In this document: positions 4,009 to 21,912 of the stretch, piece after piece
How the letters are laid out: each line of letters opens with the position of its first letter
Numbering within the stretch: position 1 is the first letter of the stretch
DNA from: a virus
Lineage: Duplodnaviria; Heunggongvirae; Uroviricota; Caudoviricetes
IMG/VR virus record: IMGVR_UViG_3300006204_000001
Strand: one strand, 5' to 3'
Length of the DNA: 26,421 bases
Notes under the pieces: generated by a model
Databases searched by the model: none
Told to the model about the DNA's origin: nothing
The model's input: only the letters and a program-made list of their open reading frames with translations
Translations under genes and position numbers: made by a program

Positions 4009-4020
4009 AACAGAAGCATA
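4009..4020 (+). promoter_or_regulatory. Candidate late promoter AACA-N6-TA
   Basis: AACAGAAGCATA matches the AR9 late-promoter pattern as I recall it and lies upstream of the head block. Confidence 0.45.
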
Positions 4021-4076: not shown

Positions 4077-5846
4077 ATGTTTACGTTTGGAGATACAAAA
4101 AATGATATTCTCTTAACTGAAGGAATTATGGATAATGTATTAAATACTGCTGGTGATGCAGTAGGTGTTGATACAAATAAGTTCAAAAAAGCTTGGAATG
4201 ATGCAGCAGATCCTGACATTCATCCTAATAAAGTAAGTGATTCTGAAGTTACTCATAGAAGAATGAAGTTAATGAATAAGGCAGGTAATACTGCAGTAAA
4301 TAAAATTGATAAAACTACTTCTGACATAAGTAAGCTTACAGATAATAGATCACTTGTAGCAAGAGCTAAAAATTCTATTATGATGTTCTCTTGTTATATT
4401 TCACAGTCAACACCAGTAAATGTTGCACAAATTGAATCAGAATTATTTGCTAGAGTATATACATCTTTAGTACAATCAGTATTATCTCAAAATCAAATAT
4501 TGGATGAATCTGAGGCACATAATATGTCATTTTTAAAGAATTATCATACCAATTTGAGAGAAGCTGTTGATGTATTTGTAAATCAATTTTATGAGCCTAT
4601 TGATAATATCGATGAAATGATTTGTGAATCTGTATTTCTTGAACAAAAGATTACAAATAATCTTAGTGTTACATTTAGTGCTATTCCGAGAAATAATGAA
4701 ATTATTAATATGGAAAGTGCTATATTTGTACAAGATCCTATAATAGGTTTTGAATCTTTATATGCAGAAGCAGAAGAAATACAATCTGAAAATAAAGATA
4801 ATTTCTATACATTATCAGATAATGATTTTAGAGATATGGCTATGAATCAACTTAATATGACATCATCAGATAGAAAATTAGCCGATATGTCTGAAATTGA
4901 TTTAATTAATAGATATGGCGATTATGATAGCAGGTCTGGTAAGAATGTTCCAAATGGTAGTGAGTATAGTGATGCAATAGATGCAAGGAATGATCTTAAT
5001 AATCAGATTGATAATAAAATAGCTGATATTAAAGATGCTATTAAGAGTGGAGAAGATAAAAATTATAGTATGTATAAATATGTAAATGGAAGATTCGCTA
5101 GATGTGATAGATCTGCAACCGTTAAAAATATTAGTAAGCGAGTAGATGCTCCTATTATTTTGAGAGATCATGATATTAAAAAGATCAATGCTATGGCTCC
5201 ATATACAATTAAAGCTCAATTCAAATTAAGAGATAATAAGGGAAATATTACTGGTGAAGTAGAATATGTAATAGGAGTAAAATGTATATTACATCTTATT
5301 CGTACCGAAGATTTAGTAGATGATCTACCAGAGCTCGTTACAGGTAAGATTAAGAAATTACAAAAAGTAAGATACAAAACAGGTGAAATTACATTCTTCG
5401 ATTATTTATTTAATAAAAAAGGATTAAAATCTGATGCAGCTAAGAGAATTAATCATAATAAGAGATGGATAAATAATCTTAAGAGATTATCTGAATATAG
5501 ACAAGCTCATGGTGGGTTTTTAAAGAAACCTATAGAAGATATAACAAGTGGTCATGTTCCCATTCCTAATGGAACACTTATACTTACTCAATCCGATGTA
5601 TCTACATTAACATCCACTACAGGTATTGATCTAAGTGAATCTTCTAATGCTATTAAATTAGCAAAGAATTTATTTTTAATGGCAGTTGTAATTATTGATA
5701 GTTCTGCAGGTACAATGAGAGTTCTGTTTCCTGATGAATCATCATCATGGAATGTTTATTCGTTATCATCAATTGAAGCTGATTTAGCTAAGACTGATAA
5801 TAATAAACTTATGCAGGAATTAAATAGAGTAGTAAATACAAGATAG
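4077..5846 (+). CDS. Probable virion head/inner-body protein, 589 aa
   Basis: Sits in an operon with the prohead protease; hydrophobic-X-E|small motifs (LTE|G, LRE|A, ICE|S, YAE|A). Confidence 0.6.
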   Translation: MFTFGDTKNDILLTEGIMDNVLNTAGDAVGVDTNKFKKAWNDAADPDIHPNKVSDSEVTHRRMKLMNKAGNTAVNKIDKTTSDISKLTDNRSLVARAKNSIMMFSCYISQSTPVNVAQIESELFARVYTSLVQSVLSQNQILDESEAHNMSFLKNYHTNLREAVDVFVNQFYEPIDNIDEMICESVFLEQKITNNLSVTFSAIPRNNEIINMESAIFVQDPIIGFESLYAEAEEIQSENKDNFYTLSDNDFRDMAMNQLNMTSSDRKLADMSEIDLINRYGDYDSRSGKNVPNGSEYSDAIDARNDLNNQIDNKIADIKDAIKSGEDKNYSMYKYVNGRFARCDRSATVKNISKRVDAPIILRDHDIKKINAMAPYTIKAQFKLRDNKGNITGEVEYVIGVKCILHLIRTEDLVDDLPELVTGKIKKLQKVRYKTGEITFFDYLFNKKGLKSDAAKRINHNKRWINNLKRLSEYRQAHGGFLKKPIEDITSGHVPIPNGTLILTQSDVSTLTSTTGIDLSESSNAIKLAKNLFLMAVVIIDSSAGTMRVLFPDESSSWNVYSLSSIEADLAKTDNNKLMQELNRVVNTR

Positions 5847-5860
5847 GAGGATATAATATA

Positions 5861-7027
5861 ATGAATCAGTATAGTATATGTAATAATTATCTTGAGATTG
5901 TTGCAGGTACGGGTAATAAAACTCATCCTAAATATGTAACAGAAGCAAAATCTATTGCTTCTAGTGGAACAGAGGGTCTTGGAAAATTAAAAAACTTTAT
6001 TACATCGATAGAAAAGATTTCTTCTTCTAGTGCCTGTAAGGATTCAAGAATTTCAGAATCAAAAGGTAATATTAAAAACTTTTCAGGATATGAAAATATC
6101 ACTACTGCAATGACATTTTTAAAGAGTAATTTATCTGGTGTAAATTTAATGAAAGATCTTATATCATTATATGATAATTTGATTAAATACCAACCATTAT
6201 ATTCCGATGGATATACAAAAGGAGTTAGACTTGTAATACTTGAATATGAAAGTGCAGTATATATGTTAGTAACAGGTTTATCTATGGCTATGGCTAATAA
6301 TATAGATGTAGTATCTACTGGTACTAAAGTAAAGATTGTTAAAAAATCTTCTGATACACATGGTACTATATCAACTGTAATATCTGATCTTGTTAAGCAA
6401 TTAAATAAATCAGAGCATAAAACATATCTTGAGAATATGGTAAAGGCAAGAGATAATGTTAAAATCGATACAAGTAAAATTGATAAAAAGGAAGAAAATA
6501 AGGATGATAAAGAAATTAAAGAATCATATATGGTTGAATCTCTTGTATCAGATACTCTTGAATTAATTAATACTGGTATAAGTTTAGTTGGTTCTGGTGT
6601 TAGATTTGTAGGAACAGCTACTCGTGCGGTTAAAGATTCTATTTTTGGTATTGTACCATTAATAAGATCTGTAATGTATCTTAAATATAAAAAGAAAGCA
6701 GATACTATATTAGCATTAGAACAACAAGTTCAATTCATTCAGCAAAATATTAATCAACTTGAGAATAGGAGTAATATTGATCCTAAAAAGAAAGAGCATA
6801 TTATAAAAAAACAACAGGCTCATATTGATGCATATAAGAAGAGAGCAGAGAAATTAAGAGCAGAATTAATGGAAACCGAAAAAGATGCTTCTAATGCTAT
6901 AAAGAATGATAATCCAAATATGTCTAAAGAAGATACTCCCAATAAAGATGATGATTTTGTATTAGAAGGAAAAACTATTAAAGAAATATTTACAGAAAAT
7001 GAGGTAAATAGCAACACTCTTTCATGA
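5861..7027 (+). CDS. Probable virion head protein, 388 aa
   Basis: RBS overlaps the upstream TAG; IKE|S, MVE|S and VLE|G motifs; C-terminal coiled-coil-like segment. Confidence 0.6.
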   Translation: MNQYSICNNYLEIVAGTGNKTHPKYVTEAKSIASSGTEGLGKLKNFITSIEKISSSSACKDSRISESKGNIKNFSGYENITTAMTFLKSNLSGVNLMKDLISLYDNLIKYQPLYSDGYTKGVRLVILEYESAVYMLVTGLSMAMANNIDVVSTGTKVKIVKKSSDTHGTISTVISDLVKQLNKSEHKTYLENMVKARDNVKIDTSKIDKKEENKDDKEIKESYMVESLVSDTLELINTGISLVGSGVRFVGTATRAVKDSIFGIVPLIRSVMYLKYKKKADTILALEQQVQFIQQNINQLENRSNIDPKKKEHIIKKQQAHIDAYKKRAEKLRAELMETEKDASNAIKNDNPNMSKEDTPNKDDDFVLEGKTIKEIFTENEVNSNTLS

Positions 7028-7061
7028 AGCCACTAATTATTCTGATATAAAAGATGATATT

Positions 7062-8492
7062 ATGAAAAAATATATACCTAATATTTATCAAAAATCAATA
7101 TATACAATTGACTATGATAAGTTGAAAAAGAAAGGTATAAAATTATTATCATTTGATATTGATGAAACTATTAGTGGCGATAGAGAAAAAGAACCACCTA
7201 AACCAGCTATTACATTATTTGAAGACTTAAAGAAGAAAGGATTTAAAATTATTTTATTCACAAATGCTAGTGAAATTAGAGCAAGAAAATTTGCTACATT
7301 ACTAGATGTTCCATTCTATTGTGAATGTAAAAAACCTTTAGGAACTAACTTCAATAAAGCTTTAAAGAAATATAATCTTAAACCATCACAAATGTGTCAT
7401 ATTGGTAATAATAGATTCGATGATGTAGCTGGAGGTAATTCACTAGGTATTATAACATGCTTAGTTAATAATGTATCAGGTAAAGTTGATAATCCTGAAG
7501 AGATAAAGTTGGTGAATGAATTACGGAGAAGAAAATTGATAACTAAAAATAAATTCTATCAGATAAATGAATCTGTAGATATGAATGTTGTTAATAAAAG
7601 AAAAGAAAATTCTATTAATAAATTTATTAATAGGATGGATAAATCAAATAATTTCTCATTTCCATGGAATAAAAACAAATCGACTATTAATAATGATTTA
7701 GAATTATATAAACCTAAATTAGATGCATTATATGATGAATTATTTGAAATTACTAAACAACAATCAATAGTTCTTAATTTCAGTTATGCTCAAATGACAG
7801 AACCTCCAAGTTTTAGAACTAGAACTAAACTTGGTGGTACGCCATATTGGCCTGCTGAAATGGCCCCATCCTATCCAAAAGATATGCTGTTATATGCTCA
7901 AATTAATTTTGCAGAATTACCAAATCTAAAAGGATATCCATCATCTGGTATTTTACAATTCTTTACTGATGGATGGTTGTGGGATGGAACAAATGATTAT
8001 TCAAGACATAAAACAATTTATCATCCAAATGTGTTTGAAAACATATTACAGTTTAATTATATACCAAAAACAACTATAACTGACAATGATGATGAAGCAC
8101 CATTTAAAGGTGTGATACCATTATTAGGATCAAAGATGGAATATCAATGTATCCAAATGGACGTTGAAGGTTTTGATAATGTAATATATCCATTAATTGA
8201 AAAACATCTTGGTATTAAGACTGATAGTATATATTATGGATTACCAAAAGGATGTTATAGTTATCTGTATAATAAAATAAATGCAACTGGATGGGGTAAT
8301 AGAATAGGTGGTTATCCTAACTTTACTCAATCTGATGCTACTGATGATAATTATAATACACTATTATTCCAAGTTGATAGTAATAAAGATATCTTATGGG
8401 GTGATGATGGTATATCTAATATCTTTATTAATGATAAAAAATTATTAAATAAAGATTTTAGTGATTGTCTATATACATGGGATTGTTATTAA
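7062..8492 (+). CDS. Fusion of YqeG-like HAD IIIA phosphatase and YwqG/DUF1963-like domain
   Basis: N-terminal SIYTIDYDKLKKKGIKLLSFDIDET, FTNA, KKP, IGNNRFDDVAGGNSLG. C-terminal TKLGGTPYWP, AQINFAELP, GILQFF, RIGGYPNFTQ, LLFQVDS, WGDDG, DFS..YTWDC. Confidence 0.85.
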   Translation: MKKYIPNIYQKSIYTIDYDKLKKKGIKLLSFDIDETISGDREKEPPKPAITLFEDLKKKGFKIILFTNASEIRARKFATLLDVPFYCECKKPLGTNFNKALKKYNLKPSQMCHIGNNRFDDVAGGNSLGIITCLVNNVSGKVDNPEEIKLVNELRRRKLITKNKFYQINESVDMNVVNKRKENSINKFINRMDKSNNFSFPWNKNKSTINNDLELYKPKLDALYDELFEITKQQSIVLNFSYAQMTEPPSFRTRTKLGGTPYWPAEMAPSYPKDMLLYAQINFAELPNLKGYPSSGILQFFTDGWLWDGTNDYSRHKTIYHPNVFENILQFNYIPKTTITDNDDEAPFKGVIPLLGSKMEYQCIQMDVEGFDNVIYPLIEKHLGIKTDSIYYGLPKGCYSYLYNKINATGWGNRIGGYPNFTQSDATDDNYNTLLFQVDSNKDILWGDDGISNIFINDKKLLNKDFSDCLYTWDCY

Positions 8493-8507
8493 GGAGGTGA
8501 AATCAAA

Positions 8508-9377
8508 TTGATTAATAAAAGTAAACTTGCAGATATGAATACATTTTGTTATATCCAGGAGCAAACTTCATCTGAAGAAGATTACACTAACTTTGGTTAT
8601 CAAGTTTATGATAAAGGTAATAGGTTTTATGTAACTTTTAAAGCTGTATTACAATCATTTGAAGTTAAGAATCGTAATGGTCGTGAATATGATCAAAACA
8701 ATGTATGGGATAAAATTGTTAATGATGAATATATTCAGGATCAATTACGTAAGAATTCTTGGATGGGTGAAATTGATCATCCAGCTCCAATTTATAAAGA
8801 TGATGAATTAACAGTACAAAGGATAGCTAATCCTGATCCAAAGTTAACATCACATTATATTAGATCTCCTAGATTAAATAGTAATCTTTTAGAAGCTAAT
8901 ATACAAACAGACTCAGGTACAGAAGCAGGAATGAATTTTGCTATTAAAATAGTAGATGGTAAAATTATTCCATGTTTCTCTGCTAGAGTATTAGGTTCAG
9001 CTAAAACTGTAGGTGGAAGACTTGTAGTATGGGTAAATAAATTAGTTACATATGATTGGGTATTTTATCCTAGTCATAAAGAAGCTGAAGCTAGAATTAA
9101 CCAACCTAGAATGGAAGCTGTAGATGACTTTACTAAATTTACAGGATGTAAAGTAATTTATTTTCCTGAACTTGCAAGAATGGCAGCAAATAATTCTAGA
9201 GAAACAGAATATTTATGTGAATCATTTGGTCTTACAATAGATGATGTAATAGGTATTACAGAATCGGGTAATTCAATTGTTATACAAGAGAATTCAAATA
9301 TATATGCTCAACCTATTATGGATTCTACTATTAAGAATAAAACACAAAAGATGATGAAAGATTGGTTACATAGATAA
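8508..9377 (+). CDS. Prohead core protease (T4 gp21-like)
   Basis: NRNGREY, GEIDHP, FSARVLG and TYDWVFYPSH motifs; TTG start with AAGGAGGTG RBS. Confidence 0.88.
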   Translation: MINKSKLADMNTFCYIQEQTSSEEDYTNFGYQVYDKGNRFYVTFKAVLQSFEVKNRNGREYDQNNVWDKIVNDEYIQDQLRKNSWMGEIDHPAPIYKDDELTVQRIANPDPKLTSHYIRSPRLNSNLLEANIQTDSGTEAGMNFAIKIVDGKIIPCFSARVLGSAKTVGGRLVVWVNKLVTYDWVFYPSHKEAEARINQPRMEAVDDFTKFTGCKVIYFPELARMAANNSRETEYLCESFGLTIDDVIGITESGNSIVIQENSNIYAQPIMDSTIKNKTQKMMKDWLHR

Positions 9378-9382
9378 TATAT

Positions 9383-9418
9383 TAGAGGTATCCAATTGGA
9401 TACCTCTATTTTTCTTTT
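9383..9418 (+). terminator. Intrinsic terminator
   Basis: Perfect 26-bp palindrome TAGAGGTATCCAATTGGATACCTCTA followed by a T-tract. Confidence 0.85.
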
Positions 9419-11598: not shown

Positions 11599-11808
11599 TT
11601 ATTGAGCAAAATCATAAGGTAAACTTGTCATTGTTTCATAATCATCTGCTGTAATTTTATTTTGTACTCTATATTCAATTAAGTATACTACACGTTCTAC
11701 AGGTCTATATGTTTTTTGTATAGTCTCCAATGCTAACTTTTCTGCATCTGTTAAATTTGTTCTATTAGAAAAGTCTACATAAAATTTAGACTGATCGTAA
11801 AGAATCAT
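11599..11808 (-). CDS. 69-aa protein with XkdX-like C-terminal motif
   Basis: NKITADDYETMTSLPY resembles the XkdX pattern GKIT.EEY..ITG..Y; ATGA overlap with the upstream gene. Confidence 0.5.
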   Translation of the reverse strand: MILYDQSKFYVDFSNRTNLTDAEKLALETIQKTYRPVERVVYLIEYRVQNKITADDYETMTSLPYDFAQ

Positions 11809-12557
11809 GGTTCTTCCTCCTTTAATAATTCTTCAAATTTTGTATAATTTTTATTTACAATTTTAATAAACTTAACGAATCGAGTTAAAGATTGCATCAT
11901 TTCTTCTTTAAGTTTATCCTTTTCTCTGCTTTCTTGATTAATATTTAATGCAGATCCATCATCTTTTATTTCTACTTCTAAACCGAGAGATGGAATATAA
12001 AAATCAGGGATATAAAAATGTATATCTCCTTTATAATGATAAATATATGTATGTGGTGAAGGTGAAAATAAATCAGATGAAGGCCAATATAATTTATAAT
12101 CTAAATATTTCAAAAAATCTAATTCATATGATGATGAATATGTAAATTTAGATTTATTATCAGACCATATATATTCACCTGATATTTTTCTATTAGCTAA
12201 CATTTTCTTTTGCATTTCTGGATCATCTAATAAATATACTTTGCCATATTTATCTATCATTCTTTTATCACGTTCTTCCTTATATTTTTGCTTACACATT
12301 GGATTATTACAGAAACGTGAATATTTCATTGTTTTTTCATTGAAATCTGTTTCATTATGACATTCTATACAACTACCTTTATCTTTTCCAGTTAATAAAT
12401 AATAAAAATATCTATAACCATTCATTCCTTCTGGTAATAATAATCGATGTTTAGTATCATAATGTTTACCCATTTTATGTTTAGCATCTATAACTTGTTT
12501 CCTATTTGAAGGTATAGGAATATTATATTTACAAAAGTTGCATCTATATATCTTCAT
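11805..12557 (-). CDS. Zn-finger PD-(D/E)xK (TnsA-like) endonuclease
   Basis: CNFC..H...H, CIEC..FCNNPMC, SSYELDF and YIPDFYIPSLGLEVEIKD; AAGGAG RBS. Confidence 0.75.
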   Translation of the reverse strand: MKIYRCNFCKYNIPIPSNRKQVIDAKHKMGKHYDTKHRLLLPEGMNGYRYFYYLLTGKDKGSCIECHNETDFNEKTMKYSRFCNNPMCKQKYKEERDKRMIDKYGKVYLLDDPEMQKKMLANRKISGEYIWSDNKSKFTYSSSYELDFLKYLDYKLYWPSSDLFSPSPHTYIYHYKGDIHFYIPDFYIPSLGLEVEIKDDGSALNINQESREKDKLKEEMMQSLTRFVKFIKIVNKNYTKFEELLKEEEP

Positions 12558-18158: not shown

Positions 18159-18668
18159 ATGAATCATTATAATATGAAATATCATAATATTACTACTGAT
18201 GATATGAAAAATGGTGATGGATTACGTGTAGTATTATGGGTATCAGGATGTTCACATCATTGTGATGGATGCCATAATCCATTTACTTGGGATCCAAATT
18301 CTGGTTTAGAATTCACTCAGGAGACAGAGGATGAATTAATGGATAAATTAAATTATCCATATATATCAGGATTGACATTATCAGGAGGTGATCCATTTTT
18401 TCATAGTAATATAGTAGATGTAGGAAAATTAATAGGAAAAGTAAAATTAAATTTTCCTAAAAAGACAATATGGGTATATACTGGATTTAAATATGAAGAT
18501 ATTTATCCTAATATAAAATATTTTATATCTAATATAGATGTAATAATAGATGGAAGATTTGTTAAGGATTTAGCTGATGTAAAATATAAATGGGCAGGAT
18601 CAACAAATCAGAGAATTATTGATGTAAAGAAAACAATAAAGACAGGAGAGATAGTAAGTTATGTATAG
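18159..18668 (+). CDS. nrdG: Anaerobic ribonucleotide reductase activating protein (radical SAM)
   Basis: NGDGLRVVLWVSGCSHHCDGCHNP, GLTLSGGDP, WVYTG and GSTNQRIID; overlaps the nrdD start. Confidence 0.96.
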   Translation: MNHYNMKYHNITTDDMKNGDGLRVVLWVSGCSHHCDGCHNPFTWDPNSGLEFTQETEDELMDKLNYPYISGLTLSGGDPFFHSNIVDVGKLIGKVKLNFPKKTIWVYTGFKYEDIYPNIKYFISNIDVIIDGRFVKDLADVKYKWAGSTNQRIIDVKKTIKTGEIVSYV

Positions 18669-21600
18669 AATAATTAAAAAGGATGGTACATTAGAAGATT
18701 TTGATAACAATAAGATTATTAATGCAGTAACTAAATCAGCAGGTAGAATGATGATTCAATTATCAGATGATGATTTTAATAATATCATTAATAAAATTAT
18801 TTCTAAAATAGAAGATTTTGAAATGTCTGATATTAAAGTAGATGATATGCATTCATTTGTAGAAGCCACATTAGAGGAGTTTAATCCTATTATAGCAAAA
18901 TCTTATAGAGATTATAGAAATTATAAAAAAGATTTTGTACATATGATGGATAAAGTATATGAACGATCACAAGCTATACGATATATAGGTGATAGAGAAA
19001 ATGGTAATACAGATTCTGCATTAGTGGCAACAAAAAGATCATTAATTTATAATGAATTAAATAGAAGACTATATAAACAATTCTTCATGACTGTAGAAGA
19101 AAGACAAGCATGTAGAGATGGCTATATTTATATACATGACCAATGTTCACGACTTGACAGCCTAAACTGCTGTCTATTCCGTATGGATAATGTAATGAAA
19201 GATGGATTTGAGATGGGTAATGTTTGGTATAATGAACCTAAAACATTGGATACTGCATTTGATGTTATGGGTGACATTATATTATCAGCAGCATCGCAAC
19301 AATATGGTGGGTTTACAGTTCCAGAAGTAGATAAATTATTATCATATTACGCAGAGAAATCATATAATGTATATTATAATGAACACAAATCCAATTTAGA
19401 AGAATTTATTATGAACAACGATGTTCTTCATAATAAATGTGATGAATATGCAATGAAGAAAGTTAGACGGGAATATGAACAAGGATTTCAAGGTATTGAA
19501 ATGAAATTAAATACTGTAGGAAGTAGTAGAGGAGATTATCCTTTTATTACTATGACATTTGGATTAGCTACTGATAAATTTGGTAAGATGGCTTCAGAAG
19601 TATTTTTAGATGTTCATATGAAAGGTCAAGGAAAGAAAGGATTTAAACGCCCAGTATTATTTCCTAAATTGGTATTTTTATATGATAAAAATTTACATGG
19701 AGAAGGAAAAGAATTAGAAGATTTATTTAATAAAAGTATTGAATGTTCATCATCAACCATGTATCCAGATTATCTTTCATTAACTGGAGATGGATATGTT
19801 CCTTCTATGTATAAAAAGTATGGTAAAGTAATCAGTCCTATGGGATGTGTTCAAAAAGATGAACTTGTAACATATAAATTCAATGGAAATTTATATGTTG
19901 AGAGTATAGGAAGGATGTGGAATAGAATTAAGTGTGCATTTCCACAAAAAATACAAATTGAAGGACAACCTCATTTGTATATTGATGTAGATCCAAATTT
20001 AGTTCAAATATATGATAAAGAAAAAGGTTTTGTAAAAACTAAAAGAATGGTAAAAAATAGGAGTAATAATTGGGCTAGAGTTACATTATCAAATGGAAGA
20101 ATATTAGAATGCACATTAGATCATCCGTTACCTGTAATAGGAAAGGGTCGAACATTTGTATCAAATTTACAAATAGGTGATAAAATTCCATTGAATAAGA
20201 CTCAATATGTTGAAGAAACATATAATGGAACTAATATTGATTATGCATGGATGCTAGGAATAATATTATGTGATGGATGTTATGATGATCAACTAAATGT
20301 TACAATTAATTCTTATGGAGAAGATGAAATTGTTAATGCTTTAGCTCCAATTATGCAAAAATATTATAATCTTGAAATGATTATAAATGAGCAGAAAAGG
20401 GGTAAAAAAGGAAATTATTTAGAGTTGAAATTTCCTCATTCTAGTCATGTATGTAGAGATATGATTCATATATTTGAAGGATTACAAAAAGTGCATAGAC
20501 ACATACCTAATTTTATATTTAATTCAAGTAAAGAAGTTAGATTAGCATTTTTAGCTGGAATGATTGATGCAGATGGGTATATTAATGATAATAATCATGT
20601 ATCTACAATTCAGCTTGGATCTACTAATAAAGAATTAGCTTTACAACAAATGGCTCTTATGCAATCATTAGGGATTAGATCAAATATTTATTCTAATAAA
20701 TATAATAAAGTATTTCCGAACAAAATAAGGTATAAAGTTGAAGGAGAAGCTATAAGTGAATTAGTAAAGTATATAAAATGTAAAAAGAAAATTGAACATT
20801 TCAATGAGAATGTTCGTACTAATATTTCTAAATCTGATTTAGATGAAGGAGTGGTAACAAAGATAGAAATATTATATAACAGAATTGATTGGAGTTATGA
20901 CGTTACAACAGAATCCGATTATTTTGATATTTCTGGAATATATTCTCATAATTGTCGAGCATTTTTATCACCTTGGTATGAAAAAGGTGGCATAGAACAA
21001 GAGAATGAAGATGACCAACCAGTATTTCTCGGTAGATTTAATATAGGAGCTGTATCATTACATCTTCCTATGATATATATGAAATCTAAAAAGGAGAATA
21101 AGGATTTTTATGAAATATTAGATTATTATCTTGAAATGATTAGACAGCTGCATATTCGTACATATGCATATCTTGGAGAAATGAGAGCATCTACTAATCC
21201 ATTAGGATTTTGTGAAGGTGGATTCTTAGGTGGCAATCTTAAACCTAATGACAAGATTAAACCTTTATTAAAGGCTATGACAGCTTCTTTTGGTATTACT
21301 GCATTTAATGAATTGCAAGAACTTTATAATGGAAAATCTATTAGAGAAGATGGGATGTTTGCATTAGATGTATTAAAATATATAAATAATAAAGTTAATG
21401 AGTTTAAAAAAGAAGACAATAATCTATATGCAATTTATGGTACTCCTGGAGAAAACCTTTGTAGTTTACAAGTTAAACAATTTAGACAAATATATGGCAT
21501 AATAGAAAATGTTTCTGATAGACCGTATGTGAGTAATTCATTTCATTGTCATGTAACTGAGGATGTTACTCCTATAGAAAAACAGAATATTGAAAATAAA

Positions 21601-21912
21601 TATTGGAATTATTGTAATGGAGGAAAAATACAATATGTAAAATATCCAATTGATTATAATATAAAAGCAATAAAAACATTGGTAAAGAGAGCAATGGAAA
21701 TGGGTTATTATGAAGGTGTGAATCTATCACTTGCATATTGTGAAGAATGTGGACATACAGAATTGGAAATGGATGTATGTCCAAAATGTGGAACAAGAAA
21801 TATATGTAAAGTAGATAGAATGAATGGATATTTAGCATATAGCAGGGTACATGGGAGTAGCAGACTTAGTGATGGTAAAATGGCTGAAATAGCTGATAGA
21901 GTAAGTATGTAA
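18661..21912 (+). CDS. nrdD: Class III ribonucleotide reductase with ATP cone, intein-containing
   Basis: ATP cone, YIHD, FPKLVF, SPMG|C...HN|CRAFLS, YGTPGE, SNSFHCHV, CEECG..CPKCG and RMNGYL. Confidence 0.97.
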   Translation: MYRIIKKDGTLEDFDNNKIINAVTKSAGRMMIQLSDDDFNNIINKIISKIEDFEMSDIKVDDMHSFVEATLEEFNPIIAKSYRDYRNYKKDFVHMMDKVYERSQAIRYIGDRENGNTDSALVATKRSLIYNELNRRLYKQFFMTVEERQACRDGYIYIHDQCSRLDSLNCCLFRMDNVMKDGFEMGNVWYNEPKTLDTAFDVMGDIILSAASQQYGGFTVPEVDKLLSYYAEKSYNVYYNEHKSNLEEFIMNNDVLHNKCDEYAMKKVRREYEQGFQGIEMKLNTVGSSRGDYPFITMTFGLATDKFGKMASEVFLDVHMKGQGKKGFKRPVLFPKLVFLYDKNLHGEGKELEDLFNKSIECSSSTMYPDYLSLTGDGYVPSMYKKYGKVISPMGCVQKDELVTYKFNGNLYVESIGRMWNRIKCAFPQKIQIEGQPHLYIDVDPNLVQIYDKEKGFVKTKRMVKNRSNNWARVTLSNGRILECTLDHPLPVIGKGRTFVSNLQIGDKIPLNKTQYVEETYNGTNIDYAWMLGIILCDGCYDDQLNVTINSYGEDEIVNALAPIMQKYYNLEMIINEQKRGKKGNYLELKFPHSSHVCRDMIHIFEGLQKVHRHIPNFIFNSSKEVRLAFLAGMIDADGYINDNNHVSTIQLGSTNKELALQQMALMQSLGIRSNIYSNKYNKVFPNKIRYKVEGEAISELVKYIKCKKKIEHFNENVRTNISKSDLDEGVVTKIEILYNRIDWSYDVTTESDYFDISGIYSHNCRAFLSPWYEKGGIEQENEDDQPVFLGRFNIGAVSLHLPMIYMKSKKENKDFYEILDYYLEMIRQLHIRTYAYLGEMRASTNPLGFCEGGFLGGNLKPNDKIKPLLKAMTASFGITAFNELQELYNGKSIREDGMFALDVLKYINNKVNEFKKEDNNLYAIYGTPGENLCSLQVKQFRQIYGIIENVSDRPYVSNSFHCHVTEDVTPIEKQNIENKYWNYCNGGKIQYVKYPIDYNIKAIKTLVKRAMEMGYYEGVNLSLAYCEECGHTELEMDVCPKCGTRNICKVDRMNGYLAYSRVHGSSRLSDGKMAEIADRVSM
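19846..20952 (+). mobile_element. 369-aa intein with LAGLIDADG homing endonuclease
   Basis: Starts at Cys after SPMG; CTLDHP block B; WMLGIILCDG and FLAGMIDADG; ends YDVTT..SHN followed by Cys. Confidence 0.95.

Follow-up and report, generated by a model that had tools for sequence, protein, structure and literature searches.

A HAD-TYPP fusion gene between a virion-protein homolog and the prohead protease in an AR9-like jumbo phage of mouse-gut origin

The stretch of DNA analysed here, called the window throughout, comprises 26,421 nucleotides (nt) of the IMG/VR virus record IMGVR_UViG_3300006204_000001. It is part of a complete phage genome of 289,059 bp with terminal repeats and a G+C content of 27%. 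The phage carries genes for a split multisubunit RNA polymerase and is, judged by its sequence, related to AR9, PBS1 and phiR1-37. It is an AR9-like jumbo phage of the mouse gut, and contigs of it are contained in mouse-gut metagenomes from at least nine studies. We studied an open reading frame (ORF) of the window that joins a YqeG/PgpP-like phosphatase module of the HAD family to a TYPP domain (DUF1963, YwqG) and that we call HAD-TYPP. It is preceded by the genes of a virion protein of 589 amino acid residues (aa) and of a protein named N-dom here, and followed by the gene of the prohead maturation protease (Table 1).

Terminator-like hairpins were found before position 4077 and after the protease gene, and none was found within 4077-9377. 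The candidate promoter in front of the first gene was matched to the AR9 late promoter consensus AACA-(6N)-TA/G (PMC5312081). HAD-TYPP lies in one predicted operon with the N-dom gene and the prohead protease. The initial annotation had placed the ORF between a head protein and the protease with no terminator in between; the gene order and the lack of a terminator held, and a head location of the upstream protein would follow from the gene order. The 589-aa protein matched phrog_23804 ('virion structural protein', E 4.2e-28) and, by tblastn, gp213 of AR9/PBS1 (E 3e-20). The protease was recognised by Pfam Peptidase_S80 (PF20034, E 4.8e-14), S77 (E 7.6e-8) and phrog_3014 (E 3.1e-24), and its nearest homologs in isolates are phiR1-37 g079 (32% identity) and proteins of Staphylococcus, Listeria and Bacillus jumbo phages.

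Table 1. Features of the predicted head operon in the window
Feature	Position	Strand	Remarks
Candidate AR9-type late promoter, AACA-N6-TA	4009..4020	+	57 nt 5' of the first gene of the operon; consensus match only
589-aa virion protein gene, AR9 gp213 homolog	4077..5846	+	First gene of the operon; phrog_23804, tblastn
N-dom gene, 388 aa	5861..7027	+	AR9 gp214 homolog
D-F-V-L-E, N-dom residues 365-369	6953..6967	+	Candidate prohead-protease site; invariant Glu, disordered tail
Second motif F-T-E in the N-dom tail	6989-6997	+	After D-F-V-L-E
Stretch open in the HAD frame (+1 relative to N-dom)	7008..7061	+	Encodes I-A-T-L-F-H-E-A-T-N-Y-S-D-I-K-D-D-I
HAD-TYPP fusion ORF, 476 aa, 55 kDa	7062..8492	+	ATG start
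YqeG/PgpP-like HAD phosphatase module, residues 1-170	7062..7571	+	Pfam, NCBIfam, alignment
Y-Q-I-N-E-S-V-D, residues 166-173	7557..7580	+	End of HAD and start of linker; proposed cleavage E170|S171
Linker, residues 171-209	7572..7688	+	Low model confidence; basic N-K-F-I and F-x-F-P-W patch
TYPP (DUF1963/YwqG) domain, residues 210-476	7689..8489	+	Pfam, 1PV5 sequence and fold
Prohead maturation protease	8508..9377	+	Peptidase_S80, weaker S77; strong GGAGG ribosome-binding site
Terminator-like hairpin, end of the operon	9383..9408	+	11 bp, then T-run

N-dom is a distant homolog of AR9 gp214 (YP_009283119, A0A172JIC3), which is annotated as a virion structural protein. The two were matched as profiles (hhalign 95.8%, E 6.5e-9), and the fold match in BFVD was to 'Virion protein [Bacillus phage AR9]' (E 1.6e-6). 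Searches of N-dom in the PDB fold collection and in the ESM Atlas gave no match. For AR9, 43 virion proteins have been identified (PMC5312081). Like N-dom, gp214 directly follows the gp213 homolog. AR9 gp214, however, has neither the D-F-V-L-E motif nor an add-on, and the protease gene lies elsewhere in AR9: in the AR9-like Goe21 the match is about 90 kb away from the gp213 homolog, and the AR9 region gp207-gp221 contains no annotated protease. N-dom is helical and was modelled with a predicted local distance difference test score (pLDDT) of 75, whereas its tail (residues 356-388) scored about 31-33 and is predicted to be disordered. A hydropathy scan of N-dom found no transmembrane segment (maximum 1.35), so a role as a membrane-inserting ejection protein is unsupported.

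The TYPP half of the fusion was assigned by sequence and by fold. Residues 255-475 matched DUF1963 (PF09234) over the full model (1-216/216) with E 1.3e-39 and 137.2 bits, the gathering threshold being 23, and the half matched Bacillus subtilis YwqG (PDB 1PV5) in sequence with E 2.6e-27. An AlphaFold model was computed for residues 160-476 of the ORF. Residues 210-476 folded confidently (mean pLDDT 88.8), and the TYPP model superposed only on 1PV5 (Foldseek E 2.9e-20, template modelling scores 0.63/0.75). The motifs G-G-T-P (258-261) and G-G-Y-P (416-419) and the glutamines Q280 and Q423 occupy columns that are invariant or nearly so in the phage clade. The full-length DUF1963 match, the GGxP motifs, the Gln residues and the fold thus link the domain to YwqG and to the TYPP superfamily with Tsr4, PDCD2 and PDCD2L.

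In the description by Burroughs and Aravind, a TYPP domain consists of a beta unit in duplicate, has two GGxP motifs and a pocket lined by Gln, and was predicted to bind peptides in extended form (PMC4275035). The eukaryotic members Tsr4 and PDCD2 are dedicated chaperones of the ribosomal protein uS5 (PMC6648895, PMC7736825). The statement of the initial annotation that the function of DUF1963 is poorly defined is therefore outdated. In bacteria, YwqG occurs alone or fused to LRR, DUF6630 and similar domains, and never to HAD or to a phage virion protein.

The HAD half matched Pfam HAD (PF00702) at residues 19-129 with E 2.7e-10. The best match in NCBIfam was TIGR01668 (YqeG) with 78.4 bits, which is under the cut-off of 89.1 for that family. 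The alignment with relatives located motif I in F-D-I-D-E-T (31-36), where D32 and T36 are invariant and D34 nearly so, motif II at T67 in L-F-T-N, and motif III at K91 in K-K-P, with K91 and P92 invariant. Motif IV is G-N-N-R-F-D-D (115-121), in which the first Asp is replaced by Asn, D120 is present and D121 is invariant. The whole subfamily of the window HAD has G-N at this place, whereas the canonical YqeG motif reads G-D-Q-x-x-T-D. In a quick tree only, the window HAD fell into a clade apart from the canonical 173-aa YqeG (support 99 in the Shimodaira-Hasegawa-like approximate likelihood ratio test, SH-aLRT). The tree and a motif table gave D-x-D-(D/E)-T, G-N-x4-D and a C-terminal motif of the YYQLGE type as the traits of the subfamily. 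It is rare among the 80 closest cellular YqeG loci, where G-N was found in 3/80 and a YYE or YYD end in 66/80.

YqeG was shown in 2025 to be PgpP, an essential phosphatidylglycerophosphate phosphatase of Firmicutes (PMC11804483). The window HAD resembles PgpP (YqeG; HAD-IIIA) as its best-scoring family, in motifs I-III, in size and in the N-terminal start Y-I-P-x-x-Y-Q-K-S-I-Y. It differs from it in motif I (D-x-D-E-T instead of D-x-D-N-T), in motif IV (G-N-x4-D instead of G-D-Q-x-x-T-D) and in the YYQLGE-type end. Because of the score below the YqeG cut-off and the altered motif IV, a housekeeping PgpP role is doubtful, and by its motifs the module belongs to a divergent YqeG-like subfamily. 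The earlier label of a host-type YqeG phosphatase was thus right about the best-matching family, with the correction that the module is not of the housekeeping type. The closest cellular homologs of the HAD (37-47% identity) come from uncultured gut Bacilli and Tenericutes-type genomes, organisms that could plausibly host a phage of 27% G+C. Two findings speak against the HAD as the dTMP phosphatase of a uracil-DNA phage: a HAD homolog was searched for in AR9 and not found, and Dtm of PBS1 is said to resemble a mitochondrial-type deoxyribonucleotidase (PMC12697855). Proteins P0014, P0136 and P0183 (L020:6001-7350) combine a HAD of this subfamily, on either side, with a shared, uncharacterised domain of about 250 aa that contains W-Y-K-L-x-x-x-G-x-V-x-T-Y; P0183 lies amid genes for an AAA ATPase and Sel1/TPR proteins.

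The two halves are joined by a linker that is predicted to be disordered, with residues from about 160 to 209 being of low confidence in the AlphaFold model (pLDDT 46-70, construct residues 1-50). The string Y-Q-I-N-E-S-V-D, which the initial annotation had noted in the linker, was found at 166-173 and aligns with the N-terminus of the free-standing TYPP proteins P0002 and P0003. The N-K-F-I and F-x-F-P-W patch of the linker is conserved in an alignment with P0002, P0003 and P0013. The fusion itself proved real, with Pfam, NCBIfam and 1PV5 matches accounting for both halves, and its rarity was borne out by a domain-architecture check, in which neither the closest cellular loci nor any other protein cluster searched contained it. 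HMMER, run exhaustively over 1.84 billion cluster representatives, gave 4,123 relatives, of which only the window protein (P0001) covered both halves. Two word-index searches again returned P0001 as the only match to both halves, and no TYPP gene was present within 3 kb of the 80 closest cellular YqeG loci (0/80). The 90% cluster of the fusion holds 11 sequences; six intact variants of 476 aa are among them and come from about 20 contigs, several of which are complete genomes of about 289 kb. Among the 1.84 billion representatives, the HAD-TYPP fusion was thus found only in this phage species.

The relatives keep the synteny [701-1045 aa][229 aa][589-aa virion protein][N-dom][...][protease], and the place between N-dom and the protease is filled in different ways. 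Most often, N-dom, linker and TYPP form a single 660-725-aa protein, as in P0004, P0005, P0010, P0018 and others of at least 24 distinct clusters from gut AR9-like phage lineages (loci L001-L004, L007, L008, L011 and L012). The N-terminal 350-370 aa of 24 such fusions are 43-53% identical to the window N-dom. In L005 and L021, N-dom and linker-TYPP are two genes, and the TYPPs of these, P0003 and P0002, are the closest to the window TYPP with 48% and 51% identity. Other relatives have an N-dom-HAD fusion with the protease gene next (P0124/L015), N-dom followed by a 193-aa HAD gene and then the protease (P0121/L016, the HAD being 62% identical to that of the window), or an N-dom that ends in about 105 aa of unrelated sequence (L009). 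In the window, N-dom is followed by HAD-TYPP and the protease. The order of the modules is constant, with N-dom, HAD and TYPP directly before the protease. By this comparison of gene orders, the position between N-dom and the protease is a variable add-on slot. The N-dom of L021 (L021:786-2474) contains in addition an insertion of about 157 aa at a loop that is disordered in the window N-dom model (residues ~204-223), so N-dom tolerates a second insertion point.

The slot suggests a plug-in site for capsid-loaded proteins, and the HAD-TYPP protein is plausibly packaged and cleaved. The candidate for the release of the add-ons is the D-F-V-L-E motif of N-dom. A motif of the form D-(F/L/Y)-(V/I)-(L/I)-E ends nearly every N-dom, and across 24 sequences E369 is invariant and L368 conserved in at least 90%. 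A second aromatic-x-Glu usually follows 7-10 residues later, and the split N-dom forms retain the motif together with a tail of about 20 residues. The motif is best read as a release site because the Glu is invariant, the tail disordered, the position at the boundary between virion protein and module, and the protease adjacent. A conserved Glu in a segment predicted to be accessible, with an S80 protease gene next to it, is what cleavage after x-x-Glu would look like at the sequence and model level. The I-N-E at E170 of HAD-TYPP also fits a hydrophobic-x-Glu pattern and opens the predicted disordered linker. A genome-wide scan for D-F-V-L-E-like motifs gave a handful of matches. Among them, a 92-aa ORF (G000:C1:69865-70143) ends with D-D-L-I-L-E-G-E-S-N-G, the motif being 5 residues from the C-terminus, and a 353-aa ORF (G000:C1:170901-171962) has D-L-I-L-E at residues 40-44; in both, a small residue follows the motif. 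These may be further protease sites.

In the reading that we prefer, and to which we give slightly less than an even chance, the add-ons enter the prohead with N-dom, are cut free and are injected with the DNA. We infer encapsidation, cleavage, delivery and host activity of the modules. The modules would ride into the assembling prohead with N-dom, covalently in the fused relatives; in the window phage the link to N-dom might be made by translational coupling, by a rare frameshift fusion or by TYPP-mediated binding. The S80 protease, of a family whose known members cut after Glu, would then clip the disordered linkers. The freed HAD (~19.5 kDa) and linker-TYPP (~35.6 kDa) would remain inside the capsid and pass into the host together with the DNA.

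An alternative is that TYPP is a removable assembly chaperone, which would hold an extended or sticky segment of N-dom or of another head protein, as Tsr4 and PDCD2 escort an aggregation-prone ribosomal protein, and would then be cut off and lost without reaching the host, with the HAD as a passenger. The default architecture suits this explanation, since TYPP is fused in cis to N-dom with a candidate cleavage motif in between, and a slot directly before the protease resembles the scaffold or core genes of T4-type phages. The invariance of the GGxP motifs and pocket glutamines in the phage clade, the binding of extended peptides and chaperone-like action predicted for TYPP (PMC4275035) and the chaperone role of Tsr4 and PDCD2 (PMC6648895, PMC7736825) speak for it as well. 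However, L009, L015 and L016 have no TYPP and yet retain N-dom and also the protease, and a strain of the window phage carries a frameshifted TYPP, so TYPP is not essential for N-dom. The relatives without TYPP and the frameshifted strain together argue that TYPP is not an essential assembly factor, and the repeated occurrence of a phosphatase in the same slot would be left unexplained. We regard this chaperone explanation as unlikely. The dispensability of the add-on across the clade is a better fit to cargo than to an essential assembly part.

Loading, clipping after Glu and injection, which are proposed for the window phage, are known for Alt and IPI-III of T4, which are processed by gp21. 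T4 gp21 belongs to S77, a family that is also matched by the window protease. The cleavage motif of gp21 is L/I-x-E and that of phiKZ gp175 is S/A/G-x-E; the candidate motifs V-L-E, F-T-E and I-N-E resemble the T4 rule. T4 cargo has a short N-terminal targeting peptide, whereas the proposed cargo would here be C-terminal to its carrier or a separate ORF. The inner-body and ejection proteins of phiKZ, 201phi2-1 and SPN3US, which are processed by the S80 proteases gp175 and gp245, are the second point of comparison, with a protease of the same family (PF20034) in the same wider phage group, marked by split multisubunit RNA polymerase genes. The phiKZ/SPN3US-type motifs are A/S/G-x-E and the candidate motifs here hydrophobic-x-E, and no homology of their proteins to N-dom, HAD or TYPP was noted. 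To our knowledge, a variable add-on slot by the protease gene has not been described for these phages. Phages of the phiKZ/SPN3US type eject many head proteins that have been cut after Glu into their hosts (PMC7411985, PMC10052503), and the S80 protease of SPN3US cleaves at AXE (PMC7411985). Compared with these systems, the C-terminal cargo, the fixed slot adjacent to the protease that is filled combinatorially, and the appearance of TYPP and a PgpP-like HAD in this role would be new.

If the slot is a loading site, it would give bacterial and phage DUF1963/TYPP proteins their first functional context, there being none since the structure of 2004. It would also provide a natural carrier-linker-cargo design for foreign proteins in jumbo-phage capsids and a candidate injected enzyme that is related to an essential lipid phosphatase of Gram-positive bacteria. 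Protease-processed head contents would then extend from the phiKZ and T4 types to the poorly studied AR9-like phages of the gut. Even without capsid loading, the locus is a clear case of module shuffling at a fixed genomic position. A general plug-in system can be imagined, with which a clade of gut AR9-like jumbo phages would load chosen enzymes for injection and in which N-dom is the carrier, the Glu motifs are the release sites for the adjacent protease, and TYPP is a peptide-clamp adaptor or a co-injected chaperone. The HAD would be injected and act at entry on a host phosphomonoester, possibly phosphatidylglycerophosphate, and the ratio of bare to loaded carrier would be set by recoding where N-dom stops, with a shift of +1 in the HAD lineages and of -1 at T-runs in the TYPP lineages. 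We consider this extended scheme, taken as a whole, quite improbable.

Several observations weigh against capsid loading of HAD-TYPP. First, the ORF is not covalently joined to N-dom in the window phage. Second, it has no N-terminal capsid-targeting peptide of the T4 type and opens directly with the HAD fold, its start M-K-K-Y-I-P being aligned to residue 1 of the bacterial YqeG. Third, S80 proteases are known to recognise motifs in which P3 is small and not hydrophobic as in the candidate sites here. Fourth, YQINE is a family trait of the HAD subfamily. The initial annotation had taken YQINE|SVD as a protease site, and this gained little from the comparison: the YYQLGE-type end recurs throughout the HAD subfamily, even in members that lie outside phage head operons, so the conservation of YQINE is uninformative on cleavage, and we rejected the view that the HAD had acquired its (L/I)-x-E end to suit the protease. 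Fifth, TYPP genes stand beside replication genes in other phages (L013, L014), and the domain is therefore not specific for heads. Sixth, the ATG at 7062 has no Shine-Dalgarno sequence, whereas GGAGG or AAGGAG precedes the start by 7-11 nt in 8/8 neighbouring genes and 152/203 long ORFs genome-wide have a core of at least 4 nt. HAD-TYPP is therefore probably made at a low level. A TYPP gene of 330 aa was seen in an unrelated 120-kb viral contig (L014:4626-6927), where it overlaps by 35 nt, in the +1 frame, with the end of an upstream 447-aa ORF (phrog_2767) and neighbours DNA polymerase, phosphoesterase and reverse-transcriptase genes. The 447-aa ORF was considered as an N-dom and rejected on comparison.

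These contexts also bear on a further explanation, in which HAD-TYPP is a cytoplasmic late auxiliary protein in an incidental position. The HAD would act in the infected cell as a PgpP-like phosphatase or on another phosphomonoester such as a nucleotide, TYPP would be its protein-binding targeting domain, and insertions would merely be tolerated in the head operon. This agrees with the identity of YqeG as PgpP, an essential lipid phosphatase of Firmicutes (PMC11804483), with the intact HAD motifs I-III, and with closest cellular HAD homologs in metagenome-assembled genomes of plausible hosts, the gut Bacilli and the Tenericutes type. Some members of the HAD subfamily lie outside head operons on mobile-element-like contigs (L105, L020), and TYPP occurs in phage replication modules. 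However, five independent architectures keep the order N-dom, HAD, TYPP before the protease and are mostly fused to the virion-protein homolog, a fusion that a free-acting enzyme would not need. The YqeG score below the cut-off and the altered motif IV also make a housekeeping PgpP function doubtful. A free cytoplasmic role is in our view improbable, to about the same degree as the removable chaperone. A link to host signalling or defence, which had been raised in the initial annotation, was not found, and PADLOC returned no defence-family match for HAD-TYPP.

The translation of the ORF was analysed at the N-dom/HAD junction, which is confirmed without an insertion or deletion by one independent contig (X18, 6181-7193). 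Upstream of the ATG, the HAD frame is open from 7008, and the N-dom stop at 7025-7027 falls inside this leader. The encoded peptide is homologous to the leader of P0121 (L016) and to the sequence with which N-dom passes into the HAD in P0124 (L015), a true fusion. A three-frame translation of 7008-7061 found no ATG, GTG or TTG start, and no Shine-Dalgarno sequence was found there. L016 and the window share the +1 arrangement and the sequence C-T-C-T-T at the overlap. The regions around the N-dom stop (~7020-7027) and the ATG (~7060-7067) can pair in an A/U-rich hairpin of 8 bp, which is not significant. HAD-TYPP could be translated by re-initiation once N-dom has terminated, by a +1 shift that occurs rarely at C-U-U, or by very low independent initiation; of these, re-initiation or a +1 shift would tie the synthesis of the add-on to that of N-dom.

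At the junctions of separate N-dom and TYPP genes in two diverged phages, the N-dom stop comes right after a run of 6-8 T (L005:9976-10010, AGT TTT TTC TAA; L021:2462-2490, AAT TTT TTT TGA). There the -1 frame reads F-F-L-T-E-A-(G/S)-M-A into TYPP, and the TYPP genes have their own AGAGG and ATG. A -1 frameshift at the T-runs could restore the common fusion, or the split of the genes could itself be conserved. No RNA structure beyond shuffled controls was found 3' of the four split junctions (z +1.56 to -1.82), which gives programmed frameshifting no support from that side.

The state of the gene was followed in a 99%-identical strain (L023:2202-3633, L024), in which an insertion of one A after 7826 breaks TYPP at the first GGxP and leaves ORFs of 257-265 aa and 210 aa. 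Several contigs show this variant, and they stem from at least two sequencing runs. Around the frameshift, 12 substitutions cluster at 7798-7889. The synonymous divergence of linker-TYPP from this strain is 0.08 versus about 0.01 in the flanking genes, and the roughly 8-fold higher local divergence argues that the TYPP module was exchanged by recombination. The ratio of nonsynonymous to synonymous changes (pN/pS) of TYPP between window and strain is 0.15, from which it is normally under purifying selection.

HAD-TYPP could be thought of as a decaying remnant, a product of recombination left without a start of its own, hardly expressed and heading for loss. The lack of a ribosome-binding site, the homologous leader stranded 5' of the first ATG and the frameshifted TYPP variant would be explained in this way, and the stranded leader uses the Leu codon CTC, which makes up about 1% of the Leu codons in nine tallied genes of the window. 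The 476-aa ORF, however, is intact in the six variants on about 20 contigs of a phage that recurs across the mouse-gut studies, all catalytic and family-defining residues are retained, and the pN/pS of TYPP is low. The stranded leader, too, has stayed open and has kept its similarity to homologs that differ by 38% in the domain. We therefore hold decay to be very improbable, and capsid loading of the add-ons stays the reading that we favour.

The 343-aa and 326-aa genes 3' of the protease were compared and showed no clear paralogy. An endonuclease gene (11805-12557, - strand; phrog_15137, E 1e-46) lies on the opposite strand within the head-gene region, and the same place is kept in the relatives L001, L007 and L011 at 63-68% identity. 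Further downstream, an ORF of 1083 aa (18661-21912) encodes the anaerobic ribonucleotide reductase NrdD. The NrdD matches cover residues 2-396 and 761-1083, and the unrelated segment of about 360 aa in between is probably an intein or another in-frame insertion.

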